The notes beneath the pieces are model-generated. The model was not told where the DNA came from. It saw only the letters and a program-made list of their open reading frames with translations, and made no database searches. This document shows positions 1,027-36,203 of a DNA stretch of 64,000 nt, in pieces. The position numbers and the translations under genes were made by a program. Positions within the stretch are counted from its first letter, which is position 1. Each line of letters begins with the position of its first letter. This DNA comes from a bacterium (GTDB lineage Bacteria; Patescibacteriota; Microgenomatia; Daviesbacterales; UBA10151). Where the stretch lies: NCBI GenBank assembly GCA_021786105.1, contig JAJYNW010000010.1, positions 26,301 through 90,300 on the forward strand, read 5' to 3'.

Positions 1027-1130
1027 CTCCTTTGTGGTTTAGCAGGTAAAACGAAGAAAAGAAAAATTAGGTACCTAAAATTGCTTCATAGGGTGTGTAA
1101 GTAATTGTAAAGTCCTATAGTTGATAGAAA

Positions 1131-1742
1131 GTGGCTTTTGTAGTAAAATTCCCAACTATGCTTACTATAGAAGAATTAGATGCATATTGTCTTTCATATC
1201 TGCTGCCTGAACCAGAGGTTGTTAGTACGCCTGTTGTTTCCACAGACCTAGGAAAAGTTATTGCAAAGCTTATGAAAGAAGTGGCAGGGAAAAATGGTAT
1301 TTTGTCTTGCAATATTAAATATTTAGCCTTGGCTGCGGGACAAGCGTATAAAGAACTTGCATTTGCAGAAGAGCTGAATATTAACAACCGTGATGTAACT
1401 TTGGTGGATAGAAAATATCAAGATGGTGACGAACGCTGGTTTAGAAGATTTCCAGGCATTAGGGTTGTAACATCTGGCATATTTGCTTTTCTAACACAAC
1501 CGCTTGAGAAAGATTTTACGCTCGTTTCTGTTTTCGGTATAGAATATTCATTAAAAGATTCACGTCGTATGAAAGCGCTAATTTCTTTGTTGCCAAATGT
1601 TTTAAGGCGGTCTGGGTTAGTTTGTATCGATCCATATGACGGTGCAGCTATGCAAGAAATTTGGCAACAGAATAGATTTCAGCCACTATATAATCCAGCA
1701 GCTTTGCCTGATTCTCCAATCGTATATTTATTTAATCCTTAA
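1131..1742 (+). CDS. hypothetical protein, no recognizable family
   Basis: 203 aa ORF followed by a hairpin (AGGCTTG..CAAGCCT). Codon usage is richer in A/T at third positions than the neighbouring housekeeping genes. Confidence 0.4.
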   Translation: MAFVVKFPTMLTIEELDAYCLSYLLPEPEVVSTPVVSTDLGKVIAKLMKEVAGKNGILSCNIKYLALAAGQAYKELAFAEELNINNRDVTLVDRKYQDGDERWFRRFPGIRVVTSGIFAFLTQPLEKDFTLVSVFGIEYSLKDSRRMKALISLLPNVLRRSGLVCIDPYDGAAMQEIWQQNRFQPLYNPAALPDSPIVYLFNP

Positions 1743-1851
1743 TGGTTAAACATAGGCTTGTTTTATTGGACCAAGCCTGTTAAAATACAACTTATTACAC
1801 ACTCATAGTTTAAGTCTCTAAAACCACTAACTATGAGGAGGAACAAGAGAC

Positions 1852-1935
1852 ATGTATAAGAACCTGTCGGTTCTTGCGATAGTTCCGCGCTTCGCGCGTA
1901 GTAACTATCTAAAATTACCTTTTTCCTTGGTGTAA
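1852..1935 (+). promoter_or_regulatory. 27-codon upstream ORF with a strong SD (GAGGAGG) that duplicates the rpsB start (ATG TAT AAG); part of a ~87 nt structured insertion in the rpsB leader
   Basis: ATGTATAA occurs at 1852 behind a perfect SD and again at 1947 (true rpsB start, no SD). Hairpins AAGAACC..GGTTCTT and CGCGC-TTC-GCGCG lie between them, and the uORF stops 12 nt before rpsB. Confidence 0.3.
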
Positions 1936-1946
1936 AATAGAAACTT

Positions 1947-2807
1947 ATGTATAAACTACCGACATTGCAAGAACTGCTGGAAGCCGGGGTGCATTTTGGG
2001 CACCAGGTTAGACGCGGCCATCCCAGGATGCGGCCATATATTTATGGAGCCCGGGAAGGCGTGCATGTTATTGATTTAACCCAATCCGAAAAATACTTAA
2101 AAGAAGCTGCTGAGTTTGTCTACAATTTAGGCAAAGAGGGCAGAGTACTGCTTTTCGTGGGTACTAAAAAACAAGCCCAGCCGATTATTGAAGAATTTGC
2201 CAAAGAGCTGGGAGCACCGTATTTAGCGGAAAGATGGATGGGCGGATTTTTAACTAATTTTGAACAAATGCAGAAAAATATCAAAAGGCTCAAAGAATAT
2301 TTAGAGCAAAAGAAAAAGGGTGAACTTTCCAAATATACCAAAAAAGAGCAATTGTTGTTGGAGAGAAAAATGGGCAAATTGGAAAAAGATTTTGCCGGAG
2401 TAATGGATCTGGCAAAATTGCCCGATGTTATTTTTGTAGTTGATGCAGTATCGGATAATATTGCTATCAGGGAAGCTAAAAGGTTAAACATTAAAGTAGT
2501 GGCGATCGCCGATTCAAATTCTGATCCTACACAAATTGACTACCCAATCCCAGGCAATGATGATGCAATCAAATCAATTAAAATATTAGTAGGGGCGGTA
2601 GCTTCTGCTTACGGAGAAGGCAAAAAATCCTCCTCCGCCAAGGCTTCGGAGGCAGAAGAAAAAACTGCTGAAAAGCCGGCTAAAGAAGGTAAAAAAGAAA
2701 CAGAGGAGAAAACTGAAGAGGGAATAGCAGAAGAATTAAAAGAGGAAGTGGCAGCAGCTGAGGAAATGGTGGAAAAAGAATCTGTTAAGGAATCAGAAGG
2801 GTTGTAG
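1947..2807 (+). CDS. rpsB: 30S ribosomal protein S2 with an acidic K/E-rich C-terminal tail
   Basis: N-terminus reads LLEAGVHFGHQ...RWNP-like. It is followed by tsf, the conserved rpsB-tsf pair. Confidence 0.95.
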   Translation: MYKLPTLQELLEAGVHFGHQVRRGHPRMRPYIYGAREGVHVIDLTQSEKYLKEAAEFVYNLGKEGRVLLFVGTKKQAQPIIEEFAKELGAPYLAERWMGGFLTNFEQMQKNIKRLKEYLEQKKKGELSKYTKKEQLLLERKMGKLEKDFAGVMDLAKLPDVIFVVDAVSDNIAIREAKRLNIKVVAIADSNSDPTQIDYPIPGNDDAIKSIKILVGAVASAYGEGKKSSSAKASEAEEKTAEKPAKEGKKETEEKTEEGIAEELKEEVAAAEEMVEKESVKESEGL

Positions 2808-2817
2808 AATAATATTT

Positions 2818-3273
2818 ATGGATATTAAGCTTGAAGATATCAAAAAACTACGCGAACAAATCGGGGCAGGAATTGCCGATTGCAAAGAAGCTTTAAAGCA
2901 GTCAAATGGTGATATAGAAAAAGCCAAAGAGTATTTAAAGAAAAAAGGTTTTGAAAAGGGGGCTTCCAAAGGTGAAAGGGAAACTAAAGCTGGTATTGTG
3001 GATGTCTACTCGCATGGCGGAAGAGTAGGAGTTTTGGTTGAACTGCTTTGTGAAACAGATTTTGTCGGGAGAACTGAAGATTTTAAAAATCTGGCCCACG
3101 AAATAGCTTTGCAAATTGCTTCCATGAACCCTTCTAGTGTTGAAGATCTTTTATCGCAAGAGTATATTAGAGATAATTCTTTGACGATAGATCAATTAGT
3201 TAAATCCGTAATAGGAAAATTAGGAGAAAATATTCAAGTTGGCAGGTTTGAAAGAATAGCAATCGGGGAATAA
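2818..3273 (+). CDS. tsf: elongation factor Ts, short 151 aa form
   Basis: UBA-like N-terminus (LREQIGAGIADCKEAL) and core motif (VLVELLCETDFVGRTEDF). Confidence 0.85.
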   Translation: MDIKLEDIKKLREQIGAGIADCKEALKQSNGDIEKAKEYLKKKGFEKGASKGERETKAGIVDVYSHGGRVGVLVELLCETDFVGRTEDFKNLAHEIALQIASMNPSSVEDLLSQEYIRDNSLTIDQLVKSVIGKLGENIQVGRFERIAIGE

Positions 3274-9296: not shown

Positions 9297-9372
9297 GCCT
9301 GAGCGGTTAGCGAAGGATTGCGGTCGGAATGTGGAAGATTGCCACGTCGCCTTCGGCTTCTCGCAATGACAG
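9296..9372. repeat. ~77 nt palindromic element (CCTGAGCGGTTAGCGAAGGATTGCGG...GGAAGATTGCCACGTCGC...CTCGCAATGACAG), near-identical to the copy at 39632-39711
   Basis: Direct comparison of the two loci shows shared blocks GGAAGATTGCCACGTCGC and TCGCAATGACA. It overlaps the yqeY stop and ends 10 nt before the ybeY ATG. Confidence 0.55.
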
Positions 9373-23184: not shown

Positions 23185-23193
23185 TATTTCGCT

Positions 23194-23559
23194 TCAGAAT
23201 GACAAAATGTAAGGCCAAAAGATTATGATCCCCAAAATTGCGGAAGTGATAGCAGCAATTAAAACTGCCCCGGCGGAAATATCTTTGGCATACTTGGCTC
23301 TCGGGTGTTCTTTGTCTGTAAATGCATCAACTACTGCCTCGACTGCGGTATTGGTTAATTCTACGGAAATGACAAACCCGATTAAGAAGACAATAATTAA
23401 CCAGTCCTGGCGGGAAAGATTTAAAATGAGAGAGACGATAATAACAGCTAATCCTGCAACAAAATGAAATTTTAAATTTGGTTCTTCTCTTAAGGCGGCA
23501 ATAATTCCGGCGCAAGCATATTTAAAAGAGAGTATTCTCCTGTTTGCCAAATTTTCCAT
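23194..23559 (-). CDS. dgkA: diacylglycerol kinase (prokaryotic DgkA/undecaprenol kinase family)
   Basis: 121 aa, three TM helices, NTAVEAVVD signature. Confidence 0.8.
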   Translation of the reverse strand: MENLANRRILSFKYACAGIIAALREEPNLKFHFVAGLAVIIVSLILNLSRQDWLIIVFLIGFVISVELTNTAVEAVVDAFTDKEHPRAKYAKDISAGAVLIAAITSAILGIIIFWPYILSF

Positions 23560-26966: not shown

Positions 26967-29736
26967 AGTACAAACAATAGGGCAACAAAACATTAAAGTT
27001 TATCGACTAGAGGGAATATTAGAAAAAGACGCCAAAATTTTGGCTGAAAAATTACTATCGGAATCAATCAACCAAAGGTATGCAATTAACCGTCCAATCC
27101 ACCTCGAAGGAGTTAAAGCCCACCTTCGAGGTGTGGCTGTAATAGAAATTGCTTATAAACCAGGGGTCATGAACCCGGAAGTAACATCGATTATGAAAGC
27201 TGCTTCTGATTTGGGGATTAAACTAATTGCCTGCGATAGCTCCATGGAGTACCTTAATAAAAAGGTTTCCTTTAATCCTTTAATAGAACATATAGTGACA
27301 GAAGAACCGCAAACACTTTTAATCAAAGAAAAACAAAGTCAAACTCAAATAATCCCAATCAGAAATCTTAATGATAAAGAGCTTTTGGATTTATCCAAAG
27401 ATAAACTTTTCTTAAATTTGGAAGAAATGCAAACCATCCAAAAATATTTTCAAAAAATCAACAGAGATCCGACTGATTTAGAACTGGAAACTTTAGCTCA
27501 AACTTGGAGCGAGCACTCCGGTCATAAAACTTTTAAAGCGAAATTAATTGTCGACGGCAAAGAAAAAGAACCGCTAATCCAAAGGATCAAAAAAGAGGCT
27601 TTGAAACATAATAAAAATATTGTGTCAGCATTTGAGGATAATTCCGGGGTGATGGATTTTTATGATGGTTTCGGAATTTGCGGCAAAGTGGAAACCCACA
27701 ATGCTCCGTCAGCTATTGAACCATATGGCGGGGCAATGACCGGTTCGGGTGGGGTGTTTCGCGATATCGCGGCAACCGGAAAAGGCGCAAAAAATATAGC
27801 CTCAACCGATATCTTTTGTTTTGCGCCGGTTGATTTACCTATTGAGAAATTACCTCAAGGTTGTTTGCCGCCGGAATATTTATTAAAAAGGGTGGTAGCC
27901 GGAGTGAGGGATTACGGGAATAGAATGGGAATTTCGACTAATAACGGATCAGTGCATTTCCAGGAAGATTTTCGGGCCAGACCAACAGTGATTGTGGGGG
28001 CATACGGCATAGTGCCGAAAAAATATGCTTTAAAAGACAAGCCGAAAATTGGAGATTTGATAATTTGTGTGGGCGGGCGGACAGGCAGGGATGGAATTCA
28101 CGGAGCCACTTTTTCTTCCGGTGAAATGACTGAACGGACAATTGAAGTGCATTCTTCAGCGGTGCAAATTGGCAATGCCATTGAGGAAAAAAGAATGTTT
28201 GATGCGCTCTTGGAAGCTAGAGACAGAGATTTAATCAGGTTGATACAGGATGTCGGTGGTGGAGGATTCTCGTCAGCTGTCGGTGAAATTGGAGAAAGTT
28301 TAGGGGTATCAGTTGATATTAAAAATGCGCCGTTAAAATACCAGGGTTTAGCACCTTGGGAAATTTGGGTGTCAGAGTCCCAGGAAAGAATGGTGGTGGT
28401 TTTAGAGGAAAAGAATCTGGAAGGATTTAAAGACCTTTGCAAAAAACATAACGTGGAGATGGCAGTTTTAGGAAAGTTTGATGGCAGTAAAAAATTAAAC
28501 GTGACTTTTGGAGAGGAAGTTGTCGGCGATTTAGATATGCATTTTTTGCATAAAGGGTTACCGAAAAGAATTCTTAAAGCCACCTCTCCTGTCATTCTGA
28601 GCACAGCGAAGAATCTCGAGATTAATGAATTTAGAGATCCTTCACTAATCGTTCAGGATGACAAAATTGAAGAGCCAAAAACAGAAAAAGAATGGATTGA
28701 AGTTTTGAAAAAGGTTTTGGGTCACGGTAATGTTTGTTCAAAAGAGCCAATTGTCCGGATGTATGACCATTCGGTCCAGGGGACTAATGATTTGCAGCCC
28801 TTTTCCGGTGTAACTTTAGACGGGCCAAATGATTCTCCGGTTTTGCGGCCATTCTTGGATAAAAAATATGGCATGGTAATTTCTCATGGATTAAATCCGA
28901 TACTAAATAATATTGATCCATATTGGGGGAGTATTTGGGCAGCAACAGAAAGCTTATCAAATTTTGTGGCAGTGGGAGGAGACTATAAAGAAGCTTGTCT
29001 GATAAATAATTATATTTGGCCGTTTCCGGATGAGGAATCACTTTGGTCATTGGATAGATCTGTTGATGCAGTAGTAGATTTTATGAAAGTTTTCCAAATC
29101 CCGGTAATTTCAGGCAAGGATAGTTTGTCCTCAACTTACCGGGCAGCAAACGGCACGATTATTAAAATTCCCCCAACACTTTGTATGTCAGTTTTTGGCA
29201 GAATTCTTGATGTCGATAAAACTGTCACTGCTGATTTTAAGAAAGTTGGTTCAACAATTTTGTTGGTAGGAAAAACGGATAAAAGTTTAGGCGGATCCAT
29301 ATATTATCAAGTAAATAATTTAGAAGGAAATTCTTTGCCGAAAGTAGATTTGAAATTATTGTCAGAAGTTTTTACAGCAGTTAATAACGCAATAACAAAT
29401 GGAAAAGCATTAGCAGTTCACGATGTATCAGAAGGGGGAATAATTTCTACAATCTTTGAAATGTGTGTGGGCGGAGGGATGGGGGCAGATATCCACCTCG
29501 AAGGAGTCAAAGCCCACCTTCGAGGTGATCAGATTTTGTTTAACGAAACTGCAGGGTGTTTTATTGTTGAGGTGGAAAACAAAAAAGTCGCTGAGCGACT
29601 TTTTAAAAATATTCCTTATCACATCTTAGGAGAAACAAAAGTAGATCAAAAAATAGAAGTAAAAAATCTGTTTAAAGCCGACGTTAATGATTTGAAAAAA
29701 GCTTGGCAGGAACCAATGAGGAGGTGCTTCAAATGA
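26950..29736 (+). CDS. purL: FGAM synthase PurL with an N-terminal PurS-like extension; carries three in-frame repeat insertions
   Basis: 928 aa with PurL AIRS-domain motifs (VETHNAPSAIEPYGGA, GDYKEACLINNYIWPF). purQ follows. Confidence 0.85.
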   Translation: MIQKVRVQTIGQQNIKVYRLEGILEKDAKILAEKLLSESINQRYAINRPIHLEGVKAHLRGVAVIEIAYKPGVMNPEVTSIMKAASDLGIKLIACDSSMEYLNKKVSFNPLIEHIVTEEPQTLLIKEKQSQTQIIPIRNLNDKELLDLSKDKLFLNLEEMQTIQKYFQKINRDPTDLELETLAQTWSEHSGHKTFKAKLIVDGKEKEPLIQRIKKEALKHNKNIVSAFEDNSGVMDFYDGFGICGKVETHNAPSAIEPYGGAMTGSGGVFRDIAATGKGAKNIASTDIFCFAPVDLPIEKLPQGCLPPEYLLKRVVAGVRDYGNRMGISTNNGSVHFQEDFRARPTVIVGAYGIVPKKYALKDKPKIGDLIICVGGRTGRDGIHGATFSSGEMTERTIEVHSSAVQIGNAIEEKRMFDALLEARDRDLIRLIQDVGGGGFSSAVGEIGESLGVSVDIKNAPLKYQGLAPWEIWVSESQERMVVVLEEKNLEGFKDLCKKHNVEMAVLGKFDGSKKLNVTFGEEVVGDLDMHFLHKGLPKRILKATSPVILSTAKNLEINEFRDPSLIVQDDKIEEPKTEKEWIEVLKKVLGHGNVCSKEPIVRMYDHSVQGTNDLQPFSGVTLDGPNDSPVLRPFLDKKYGMVISHGLNPILNNIDPYWGSIWAATESLSNFVAVGGDYKEACLINNYIWPFPDEESLWSLDRSVDAVVDFMKVFQIPVISGKDSLSSTYRAANGTIIKIPPTLCMSVFGRILDVDKTVTADFKKVGSTILLVGKTDKSLGGSIYYQVNNLEGNSLPKVDLKLLSEVFTAVNNAITNGKALAVHDVSEGGIISTIFEMCVGGGMGADIHLEGVKAHLRGDQILFNETAGCFIVEVENKKVAERLFKNIPYHILGETKVDQKIEVKNLFKADVNDLKKAWQEPMRRCFK
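27097..27133. repeat. 37 nt palindromic element (CACCTCGAAGG-loop-CCTTCGAGGTG) in-frame inside purL, encoding IHLEGVKAHLRG
   Basis: It matches 29491-29527 at 36 of 37 nt inside the same gene, while the flanking protein sequences are unrelated. Confidence 0.6.
28590..28663. repeat. 74 nt MITE-like element in-frame inside purL (TGTCATTCTGAGCACAGCGAAGAATCTCGAG...TCGTTCAGGATGACA), encoding VILSTAKNLEINEFRDPSLIVQDD
   Basis: Almost identical to the intergenic copy at 36124-36196, with the same termini and internal AGAGATCCTTCACTAATCGTTCAGGATGACA. Confidence 0.6.
29491..29527. repeat. second copy of the 37 nt CACCTCGAAGG/CCTTCGAGGTG palindrome in-frame in purL
   Basis: See 27097-27133. Confidence 0.6.
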
Positions 29737-35033: not shown

Positions 35034-36118
35034 TGAATAATTACACAATTGCTGTTTTAGGTTCTCACTCTGCTTTAGACGTTTGCCGGGGTGCAAAAGA
35101 TTTAGGATTTAGGACTTTAGTGATTTGCAAAAAGGGAAGAGAAAAAACTTACAAAGATTATTATGCTTCTAATGGCAAATTAGGTTGTGTTGATGAAGTG
35201 ATTGTGCTGGATGAATTTAAAGATATTTTAAATAAAGAGATCCAAGAAGAACTCCTTAAAAAAAATTGTATTTTTGTTCCCCACCGGTCTTTTGAAGTTT
35301 ACATCAATGATTACAATGCGATTGAGAAAAAATTTAAAGTGCCGATGTTTGGGAACAGGTTCTTATTAAAAGCGGAAGAACGGGGAGTCAAACCAAACCA
35401 ATATGATTTATTGGATGCGGCCAAAATCCGCTACCCCAAACAATTTAAAAATCCGGAAAGTATTGACCGGCTTTGTATTGTTAAAGTTTTGGAAAAAGAA
35501 CGGGGATTTGAAAGGGCATTTTTCTTTGCCGAATCTTTTGAAGAGTATAAAGTGGGAGTAGCTCATGGATTGGGTCTAGGCAAGTTTACTGAGGAGCAGA
35601 TAAAAGCAGCAGTGATTGAGGAATTTATTGTGGGGGTGCAAGTAAATTTTAATTTCTTTTATTCACCAGTAAACAAACGGCTCGAACTAATTGGGACTGA
35701 TACCAGAAGGCAAACTAATATTGAGGGTTTAACTAAATTACCATCTATTTACGAAGAAGAGTTAATTAAAAAGATTGGAGTCAAATATGAAGAAGCCGGA
35801 CATATTGCGGTGACGGTTTTAGAATCACTTTTGGAAGATGCATTCGCAATGGGGGAAAGATTTGTAGAGGCTACTCAAAAAATGGTTAAGACCGGTGTGA
35901 TTGGTCCATTTGGTTTGCAAACTATGATTACGGCTGGTCCGCCTAAAAAAGAAATAATTGTTTTTGATGTTTCACCCAGAATGCCGGGGAGCCCGGGAAT
36001 TTTTGCAACTCCGTACGGTAATTATTTATATGGTGAGCATTTATCGATGGGTAAAAGAGTCGCCATGGAAATAAAGGAAGCTTTAGAGAAAGGAGAGTTA
36101 GACAAAGTTTTAACTTAA
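35030..36118 (+). CDS. second PurP-family paralog (ATP-grasp)
   Basis: VLGSHSALDVCRGAKDLGF. It is a paralog of the upstream gene and overlaps its stop by 4 nt. Confidence 0.7.
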   Translation: MMNNYTIAVLGSHSALDVCRGAKDLGFRTLVICKKGREKTYKDYYASNGKLGCVDEVIVLDEFKDILNKEIQEELLKKNCIFVPHRSFEVYINDYNAIEKKFKVPMFGNRFLLKAEERGVKPNQYDLLDAAKIRYPKQFKNPESIDRLCIVKVLEKERGFERAFFFAESFEEYKVGVAHGLGLGKFTEEQIKAAVIEEFIVGVQVNFNFFYSPVNKRLELIGTDTRRQTNIEGLTKLPSIYEEELIKKIGVKYEEAGHIAVTVLESLLEDAFAMGERFVEATQKMVKTGVIGPFGLQTMITAGPPKKEIIVFDVSPRMPGSPGIFATPYGNYLYGEHLSMGKRVAMEIKEALEKGELDKVLT

Positions 36119-36123
36119 CATAT

Positions 36124-36196
36124 TGTCATTCTGAGGCGTAGCCGAAGAATCTCAAGATTTAGTCCAGAGATCCTTCACTAATCGTTCAGGATGACA
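36124..36196. repeat. 73 nt MITE-like element (TGTCATTCTGAGG...TTCAGGATGACA) between purP2 and purH
   Basis: Near-identical to the in-frame copy at 28590-28663. Its 3' end (AGGATGACAG) lies 7 nt from the purH ATG. Confidence 0.6.
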
Positions 36197-36203
36197 GAAA
36201 CAT

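Follow-up and report, generated by a model that had tools for sequence, protein, structure and literature searches.

In one uncultured species of Candidatus Daviesbacteria, the gene for ribosomal protein uS2 (rpsB) is separated from its conserved leader RNA by 95 nt. Judged by comparison with relatives, this segment was inserted in this lineage alone, and the start context of the gene is duplicated around it. The locus lies in a 64,000-nt stretch of DNA from a metagenome-assembled genome (the window; GenBank assembly GCA_021786105.1, contig JAJYNW010000010.1, positions 26,301 to 90,300 of the forward strand; GTDB lineage Patescibacteriota, Microgenomatia, Daviesbacterales), and coordinates given here are positions in this window. 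The upstream copy of the start context now opens a 27-codon upstream open reading frame (uORF) that ends shortly before rpsB. We propose, with moderate confidence, this insertion history together with a route to S2 in which ribosomes terminate at the end of the uORF and reinitiate at rpsB, such that control by the leader is kept.

The comparison uses 58 non-redundant rpsB upstream regions from Ca. Daviesbacteria and Microgenomates, which were gathered through a protein database, contig look-ups and a scan of metagenomes for a DNA pattern that is diagnostic of the N-terminus of Daviesbacteria-type S2. In all 58, the leader and its Shine-Dalgarno (SD) sequence are contiguous with the rpsB start ATGTA(C/T)AAA..., the 95-nt segment is absent, and no uORF precedes rpsB. 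Their SD sequences are located 10-17 nt from the rpsB ATG or are drawn near to it by a small hairpin. Leaders of relatives are 59-67 nt long (81-128 nt when they carry extra hairpins), compared with 153 nt in the window. One relative, L087, reads ...ATTACACACTCATAGC..CTATGAGGAGGATAAGAGACT-ATGTACAAATTACC where the window reads ...ATTACACACTCATAGT..CTATGAGGAGGAACAAGAGAC-ATGTATAAG, which is the same sequence upstream of position 1852. Since the leader and SD of relatives run directly into the rpsB ATG, the upstream ATG of the window is the ancestral rpsB start.

An earlier note, made from the letters of the window alone, had interpreted about 87 nt at this locus as an insertion with the start context duplicated around it, and GAGGAGG-N10-ATGTATAAG (1835-1860) as the original rpsB initiation region. 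It had named an alignment with relatives as the test. That alignment supports both interpretations, as the 58 relatives lack the 95 nt and have an unduplicated start context. Four independent assemblies (NCBI GCA_023487645.1 and, from separate runs, three Logan assemblies) have the same sequence throughout this region and encode a 100% identical S2 protein, so the insertion is not an assembly artefact.

The promoter upstream of the leader is conserved as a -35 cTTG, a spacer of about 17 nt, (TG)nTA[A/G]AAT and then a short gap to AUUA[C/A]ACA. Among the 58 sequences analysed, of which the window is one, 51 have a gap of 6-7 nt. A strict consensus scan of 1600-2100 calls no promoter, passing over the rpsB promoter at 1758-1786 as well. 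The leader follows in a constant order: an invariant 5'-AUUA[C/A]ACA, an 8-bp hairpin (P1), the SD with its GGAGG or GAGGU core at the same leader position, and a short spacer that adjoins the AUG. The window carries the 5' element and the 8-bp P1 at 1794-1837, and transcription would start near 1794.

P1 is strongly supported by covariation. In an alignment of 40 leaders (A1), 99.4% of its cells are paired and all eight pairs show compensatory changes. The covariation score is 0.968, compared with 0.393 for shuffled alignments and at most 0.30 for slid registers. The P1 loop can in turn pair with the spacer, and this pairing exists in two co-varying forms: type A, (A/G)GUCUCU:AGAGAC(U), at 31 loci, and type B, GUUUUCCU:AGGAAAAC, at about 26. 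Loops form a mean of 7.3 contiguous bp with their own spacers, and at least 6 bp in 100% of leaders, whereas swapping the types yields 3.8 and 5.4 bp and shuffling the loops yields 4.5 bp. The window has type A strands, GUCUCU at 1814-1819 and AGAGAC at 1846-1851. As judged from the covarying sequences, the loop-spacer pairing defines an H-type pseudoknot with the SD located between its two strands.

A covariance model of the leader that was built in this analysis (R1, 'Daviesbacteria-type rpsB leader') has a single strong match in the window, at 1794-1854 (71 bits, E 1e-11). This score is within the range of 37-80 bits found in relatives. R1 matches 64 of 73 Daviesbacteria-type loci, once each, and the leader adjoins rpsB in the 58 non-redundant regions read. 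In the window, the AUG that ends the match is the upstream ATG rather than the rpsB start: AUG1852 opens the uORF, and rpsB begins 95 nt further on. The leader itself is intact, with a normal model score, a conserved promoter, and no decay of leader, SD or promoter. Around rpsB in other phyla, R1 has no match in 474 kb from 80 genomes. This out-group consists of loci from a contig scan with the whole S2 protein (universal EAGVHFGH motif; relatives of at most 50% identity, other phyla).

Rfam searches of the whole window at the gathering threshold, of 1600-2200 at E<=10, and of 12 relatives at E<=1 return no relevant family. The same searches give no match to the S2-binding RNA model t44 (RF00127, the rpsB motif), and matches to mir-3015, Lnt and AMV are chance (E 0.85-8.7). 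No rpsB leader from the candidate phyla radiation (CPR) is among recent discoveries of ribosomal leaders (PMC7247131). The element is probably a new ribosomal protein leader outside Rfam, and the rpsB leader family of Daviesbacteria is probably undescribed so far. The earlier suggestion of a regulatory leader gains substance, in that a conserved hairpin-pseudoknot leader precedes the upstream ATG.

An S2-binding leader for the rpsB-tsf operon of E. coli and other proteobacteria was reportedly described by Aseev et al. in 2008. The literature on S2 autoregulation concerns this different leader, which is conserved in Proteobacteria and beyond (PMC10931766, PMC3616713). Like the Daviesbacteria element, the proteobacterial leader (t44, RF00127) is a structured rpsB-tsf 5' untranslated region (UTR) with a predicted pseudoknot and a promoter of the extended -10 type (PMC3616713, PMC10931766), and feedback by free S2 is presumed to act on it. 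The two differ in that the Rfam searches find no sequence or structure match between them. Furthermore, the ribosome binding site (RBS) in E. coli is reported to be outside the operator (PMC10931766), whereas the Daviesbacteria SD is between the pseudoknot strands, the 3' strand of which adjoins the AUG. By analogy with other ribosomal protein leaders, the Daviesbacteria leader is a candidate S2-responsive operator, and the control it exerts would most plausibly be feedback by free S2.

Additional small hairpins are present in the leaders of 14 of the 58 relatives (L089, L091, L096, L098, L100, L113, L121, L125, L131, L132, L151, L155, L158 and L159). They span 21-63 nt, are often of the GCGAAGC type, and occur at four or more positions. 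Repeats of 0-5 nt flank them, and in several cases these are direct repeats of 3-5 nt. From these sequences, hairpins seem to be gained with particular ease in the rpsB leader. In one further locus (L140, about 130 nt upstream of rpsB), a type B leader in front of rpsB is reduced to its 3' half (…GAGATAGAGAAGATCAAGGAAAAC). Its 5' half is replaced by apparent GA-rich coding sequence, which would represent either a rearranged leader or a chimeric contig.

The 8-mer ATGTATAA occurs exactly twice in the window, at 1852 and 1947. About three copies of such an AT-rich 8-mer are expected per 64 kb, and its recurrence within 100 nt is unremarkable by itself. However, the first 8 nt of a gene are repeated within 200 nt upstream in only one of 60 window genes and one of 59 rpsB loci, which in both cases is this locus. 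Moreover, the upstream copy is placed exactly where the conserved leader puts the ancestral start codon, with a 10-nt spacer between GAGGAGG (1835-1841) and the ATG.

Several details of the earlier description can be adjusted. The 8-nt direct repeat is real, and the insert between its copies spans 1860-1946 (87 nt) instead of 1861-1946. The 27-codon uORF likewise stands, and its TAA stop (1933-1935) is 11 nt rather than 12 nt before the rpsB ATG. The true S2 frame does begin at 1947: rpsB is full length, and its N-terminus MYKLPTLQELLEAGVHFGHQ agrees with all relatives. The uORF AUG is offset by 95 nt from the rpsB AUG, so the two frames differ. An in-frame TAG at 1938-1940, two codons upstream of AUG1947, makes an N-terminal extension of S2 impossible, and both an extension and a frameshift fusion of the uORF with S2 can be rejected. 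The uORF sequence is rich in hairpins and shorter than gene callers accept, and it looks non-coding.

Initiation signals at the two start codons are very different. The predicted duplex with the anti-SD is -11.5 kcal/mol at the uORF start compared with -5.3 kcal/mol at the rpsB start, where the sole SD candidate is a GGTG located 15 nt away. This agrees with the earlier observation that rpsB lacks an SD at 1947. The absence is less exceptional than had been supposed, because only about one-quarter of gene starts in the window have an SD. Conversely, the predicted opening energy is 2.2 kcal/mol for the rpsB start region and 5.2 kcal/mol for the uORF start, and the 11-nt spacer in front of rpsB is predicted to be 83% unpaired.

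These features can be assembled into a mechanism. In the ancestor of this Daviesbacteria species, a 95-bp insertion, consisting of 87 nt of orphan hairpin-forming DNA and a duplicated ATGTATAA, hit codon 3 of rpsB. The gene was severed from its promoter-proximal leader, with its hairpin and SD-embracing pseudoknot, and the ancestral SD and AUG would now drive the uORF. The essential gene survived because the duplication supplied a new start codon and initial codons on the downstream side. Such an ATG-regenerating duplication lets an insertion at codon 3 survive, which explains why this arrangement is the one seen. Ribosomes would bind at the conserved SD of the leader, read the uORF, and melt both insert hairpins on the way. 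After termination at UAA 1933-1935, with the rpsB AUG within or beside the ribosome footprint, they would reinitiate at AUG1947. Synthesis of S2 would still depend on initiation at the leader, and so would still be under the control of the leader.

Termination and reinitiation is favoured because the sole strong SD is upstream, the rpsB start is open, the stop is 11 nt before the AUG, and the operon offers precedent. The uORF has a competent initiation site, which is the conserved ancestral RBS of rpsB, and the distance from its stop to the rpsB AUG is comparable to the 10 nt between rpsB and tsf. The genes that follow rpsB, which are tsf, frr and one more, begin 10, 0 and 1 nt past the preceding stops, and tsf has no SD, so close-range coupling without an SD is normal here. 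From this geometry, coupling of rpsB to the uORF is plausible. We infer that the uORF is translated, that reinitiation follows, and that S2 binds the leader.

The closest functional parallel is the L20 system of E. coli. In the infC-rpmI-rplT operon, L20 represses rpmI at a pseudoknot, and translational coupling carries this repression to rplT. In both systems a pseudoknotted operator controls the first open reading frame, and the gene of the regulator is located downstream, is expressed by coupling, and has the repression relayed to it. They differ in that the first reading frame of the L20 system encodes a real ribosomal protein, L35, in an arrangement that is ancient and conserved, whereas here it has 27 codons, arose by the accident of an insertion, and is confined to one species.

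Several observations weigh against reinitiation under leader control. In the fold of the full 5' UTR, as predicted from this single sequence, the SD of the uORF has an unpaired probability of only 0.11. The pyrimidine tract at 1919-1935 pairs in the minimum free energy (MFE) structure with GAGGAA 1838-1843, AAG 1845-1847 and the leader segment UUACAC 1795-1800. If this model is correct, pairing between the SD and the pyrimidine tract could damp translation of the uORF. A core SD is found at about 25% of gene starts compared with 13% for background, in statistics that are based on 59-61 crude gene starts of the window. Starts without an SD are thus common in this genome, and direct initiation at an open AU-rich site is credible. 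A -10-like TAAAAT (1933-1938) ends 8 nt before the rpsB ATG, as considered below. The intact leader could merely signal that the insertion is recent. In addition, the uORF is found in this species only, and binding of S2 to the leader is drawn by analogy.

The strongest rival shares the insertion history and regards the uORF as incidental. Free 30S subunits or 70S ribosomes would initiate directly, independent of an SD, at the unstructured AU-rich AUG1947, and control by the leader would be lost. The low predicted opening energy of the rpsB start, its mostly unpaired spacer, the predicted pairing of the uORF SD with the insert, and the prevalence of window gene starts that lack an SD all fit this scheme. 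However, a strong rpsB SD is kept in 58 of 58 relatives, so high-level synthesis of S2 normally leans on one. The leader, SD and promoter of the window show no decay, and a stop only 11 nt upstream makes reinitiation hard to avoid once the uORF is translated. Direct initiation is therefore tenable as an account of this locus, although somewhat unlikely.

Another route would rely on a promoter carried by the insert, with TAAAAT 1933-1938 as its -10 element. A leaderless or nearly leaderless rpsB mRNA would start at about 1945-1947. On the scale of the window, -10-like (TATAAT-like) hexamers end 3-14 nt before the start of 15 of 59 genes (about 25%), compared with 3.3% for background. Together with the low share of starts that have an SD, this excess suggests that leaderless mRNAs or mRNAs with very short leaders are common in this CPR genome, and the position of the rpsB hexamer conforms to it. 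Because S2-deficient ribosomes translate leaderless mRNAs better, such a transcript might itself provide feedback. One report (PMC10491246) describes enhanced translation of leaderless lambda cI mRNA in uS2-deficient rpsB mutants. Nevertheless, the putative promoter lacks both a -35 TTG and a TG extension at the correct place, and the promoter scan does not call it. Moreover, the window contains TAAAAT 145 times, and the strong conserved promoter upstream is intact. The hexamer also overlaps the uORF stop, as TAGAAT overlaps the rpsB stop before tsf, and may be just a stop codon plus AT-rich spacer. A promoter of this kind is improbable.

The same geometry of a stop codon inside a -10-like hexamer is thus seen twice in this operon. 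The second instance (window 2805-2820) is the rpsB stop TAG, which is part of a TAGAAT whose end is 7 nt short of the tsf ATG.

It is also conceivable that the 95 nt are skipped. Ribosomes might hop or scan as 70S particles from AUG1852 to AUG1947, or the segment might be excised as RNA between the repeats, restoring the ancestral message. The codons AUG-UAU-AA(G/A) flank the gap in matching form, the codon right after UAU (1858) is where a stable hairpin begins, and deleting the insert together with one repeat gives back exactly the ancestral sequence. Matching codons around a non-coding gap and a hairpin at its 5' edge are shared with bacteriophage T4 gene 60 and the yeast mitochondrial 'byps'. 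Unlike those systems, this locus has no stop or rare codon after the take-off site, and the uORF stays open for 27 codons. Only two or three residues would have been made at take-off (codon 2-3), leaving no nascent peptide to act as a signal, and the gap is 95 nt compared with 50 nt in gene 60. The Rfam searches find no intron family. Because the downstream site has its own AUG, ordinary initiation or reinitiation suffices without bypass. Skipping is very improbable given that simpler routes exist, and if true it would put an equivalent of T4 gene 60 and 'byps' on a bacterial chromosome, in an essential CPR ribosomal protein gene.

The two hairpins that had been proposed for the insert are both present, at 1858-1875 and 1878-1909. 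The fold calculation suggested along with them gives -24.4 kcal/mol for 1852-1954 (z = -2.97), and none of 200 shuffled sequences folds as well. No intrinsic terminator or attenuator is called in the insert. Decay of a tandem copy of the preceding 95 nt does not account for it (local score 16 compared with 13.8 +/- 2.2, p = 0.19). Nor is it a degraded type A or type B leader, as there is no significant local similarity (p = 0.15-0.19) and no second R1 match in the insert. An 11-bp complementarity (with one G-U) between 1870-1880 and 1964-1974 is roughly what chance would give (estimated at about 0.2) and is absent from the MFE structure. It would pair the 3' arm of hairpin 1 with rpsB codons 6-10 and compete with hairpin 1.

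Similarity to the ancestral start context extends upstream of the second 8-mer. The sequence AGAAACTT, the 8 nt before the displaced ATG, matches the relatives' AGAGACTT at 7 of 8 positions. In an anchored test, the best match has p = 0.03 and the mean score p = 0.002, with controls that are mostly non-significant. Because these 8 nt resemble the ancestral spacer, the original duplication may have been about 16 nt. A length of about 16 nt would be no less compatible with a duplication or rearrangement that took up filler DNA than with the target-site duplication of a transposon.

The insert could instead be a small non-autonomous mobile element, similar to a miniature inverted-repeat transposable element (MITE), that entered rpsB with an 8-bp target-site duplication. 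As in MITEs and other small insertion elements, the DNA is short, non-coding and rich in hairpins, and it is flanked by a perfect 8-bp direct repeat, ATGTATAA, of a target that is unduplicated in 58 relatives. By our own estimate, a random insertion would have at least 8 identical flanking bases with a probability of about 1e-4. The window also contains other small palindromic elements that are dispersed, and gains of small hairpins are seen in this leader in 14 of the 58 relatives. Unlike MITEs, however, the insert lacks terminal inverted repeats, as none of the nine possible registers exceeds 8 of 14 matches. No second copy exists in the 64-kb window or in 0.9 Mb of related loci, its exact 23-mer core is absent from metagenome and viral contig collections, and it has no similarity to the dispersed palindromic elements of the window. 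The flanking similarity that reaches 8 nt further likewise favours a longer duplication or rearrangement over an 8-bp target-site duplication. A MITE-like origin is therefore rather doubtful. That the arrangement arose in assembly, or that this rpsB is a dying pseudogene copy, can practically be dismissed, as nothing speaks for either except the oddity itself, and the four identical assemblies, the full-length rpsB with its conserved N-terminus and the normal rpsB-tsf-frr-rseP context all speak against it.

The features of the locus are collected in Table 1. The gene order is rpsB-tsf-frr followed by a gene for an RseP-type protease, with frr starting immediately past the tsf stop and the protease gene 1 nt past the frr stop.

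Table 1. Coordinates of features at the rpsB locus (window positions).
Feature	Position	Strand	Remarks
rpsB promoter	1758..1786	+	-35 TTGTTT 1758-1763; 17-nt spacer; TG-extended -10 TGtTAAAAT 1778-1786
Conserved rpsB leader RNA, type A	1794..1851	+	5'-AUUACACA, P1 hairpin, pseudoknot, SD
P1 hairpin	1802..1837	+	Arms 1802-1809 and 1830-1837; 3' arm covers first 3 nt of SD
Pseudoknot 5' strand GUCUCU, within P1 loop	1814..1819	+	Partner is AGAGAC 1846-1851
Shine-Dalgarno GAGGAGG	1835..1841	+	Ancestral rpsB SD, today SD of the uORF
Pseudoknot 3' strand AGAGAC	1846..1851	+	Directly adjoins upstream AUG
Upstream ATGTATAA copy	1852..1859	+	Ancestral rpsB start codon and 5 nt
27-codon uORF, MYKNLSVLAIVPRFARSNYLKLPFSLV	1852..1935	+	Stop TAA 1933-1935; frame differs from rpsB
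87-nt orphan insert between repeat copies	1860..1946	+	Missing from 58 of 58 relatives
Hairpin 1, AAGAACC-UGUC-GGUUCUU	1858..1875	+	Predicted -7.1 kcal/mol
Hairpin 2, GAUAGUU-CCGCGC-UUC-GCGCG-UAGU-AACUAUC	1878..1909	+	Predicted about -9 kcal/mol
Pyrimidine tract CUUUUUCCUUGGUGUAA	1919..1935	+	MFE partners are the SD region and leader 5' end
AU-rich spacer, 11 nt, uORF stop to rpsB AUG	1936..1946	+	AGAAACUU at 1939-1946 resembles relatives' AGAGACUU
rpsB, ribosomal protein uS2, 286 aa	1947..2807	+	PF00318; first 8 nt are the downstream ATGTATAA copy
tsf (EF-Ts)	2818..3273	+	Starts 10 nt past rpsB stop, without SD

Upstream of the promoter, the interval between folA and rpsB (window 1027-1757, and its equivalents in L086-L095) varies among relatives. 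In the window it contains a 203-aa open reading frame (1131-1742) that has no Pfam hits. In relatives it holds Bro-N, FemAB or MFS genes, small reverse open reading frames, or nothing.

Two families of small repeats are dispersed in the window. Members of the first are about 35 nt long, (A)GATTGC-N18-20-CTCGCAATGACA, and are located at 9337(+), 18309(-), 20121(+), 32870(+) and 39677(+). Their ends are conserved and their centres variable, they often lie over predicted gene starts (with the ATG inside GCAATGACA), and they are unrelated to the rpsB insert. The second family, …TTCAGGATGACA / TGTCATTCTGAGG…, is found at 23190-23220, 28633-28666, 36108-36138 and 36166-36199, and includes a 34-nt pair that is 97% identical.

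The rpsB locus of this species combines known themes, namely a uORF or coupling downstream of a ribosomal protein leader, and an insertion rescued by duplication of its target. It shows how a gene hit by an insertion in its first codons can be rescued when duplication of the target restores a start codon. The leader, by analogy, is a good candidate for a new S2-responsive family that, unlike the E. coli leader, has its SD inside the pseudoknot. To our knowledge, translation initiation in CPR bacteria is almost unstudied. Here, a natural experiment has moved an essential, highly expressed gene 95 nt away from its only strong ribosome binding site and regulatory leader, and the displaced arrangement is stable in the population of this one species across several samples. 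It offers a case for examining how far uORF reinitiation or SD-independent initiation can sustain the synthesis of a ribosomal protein in CPR bacteria.

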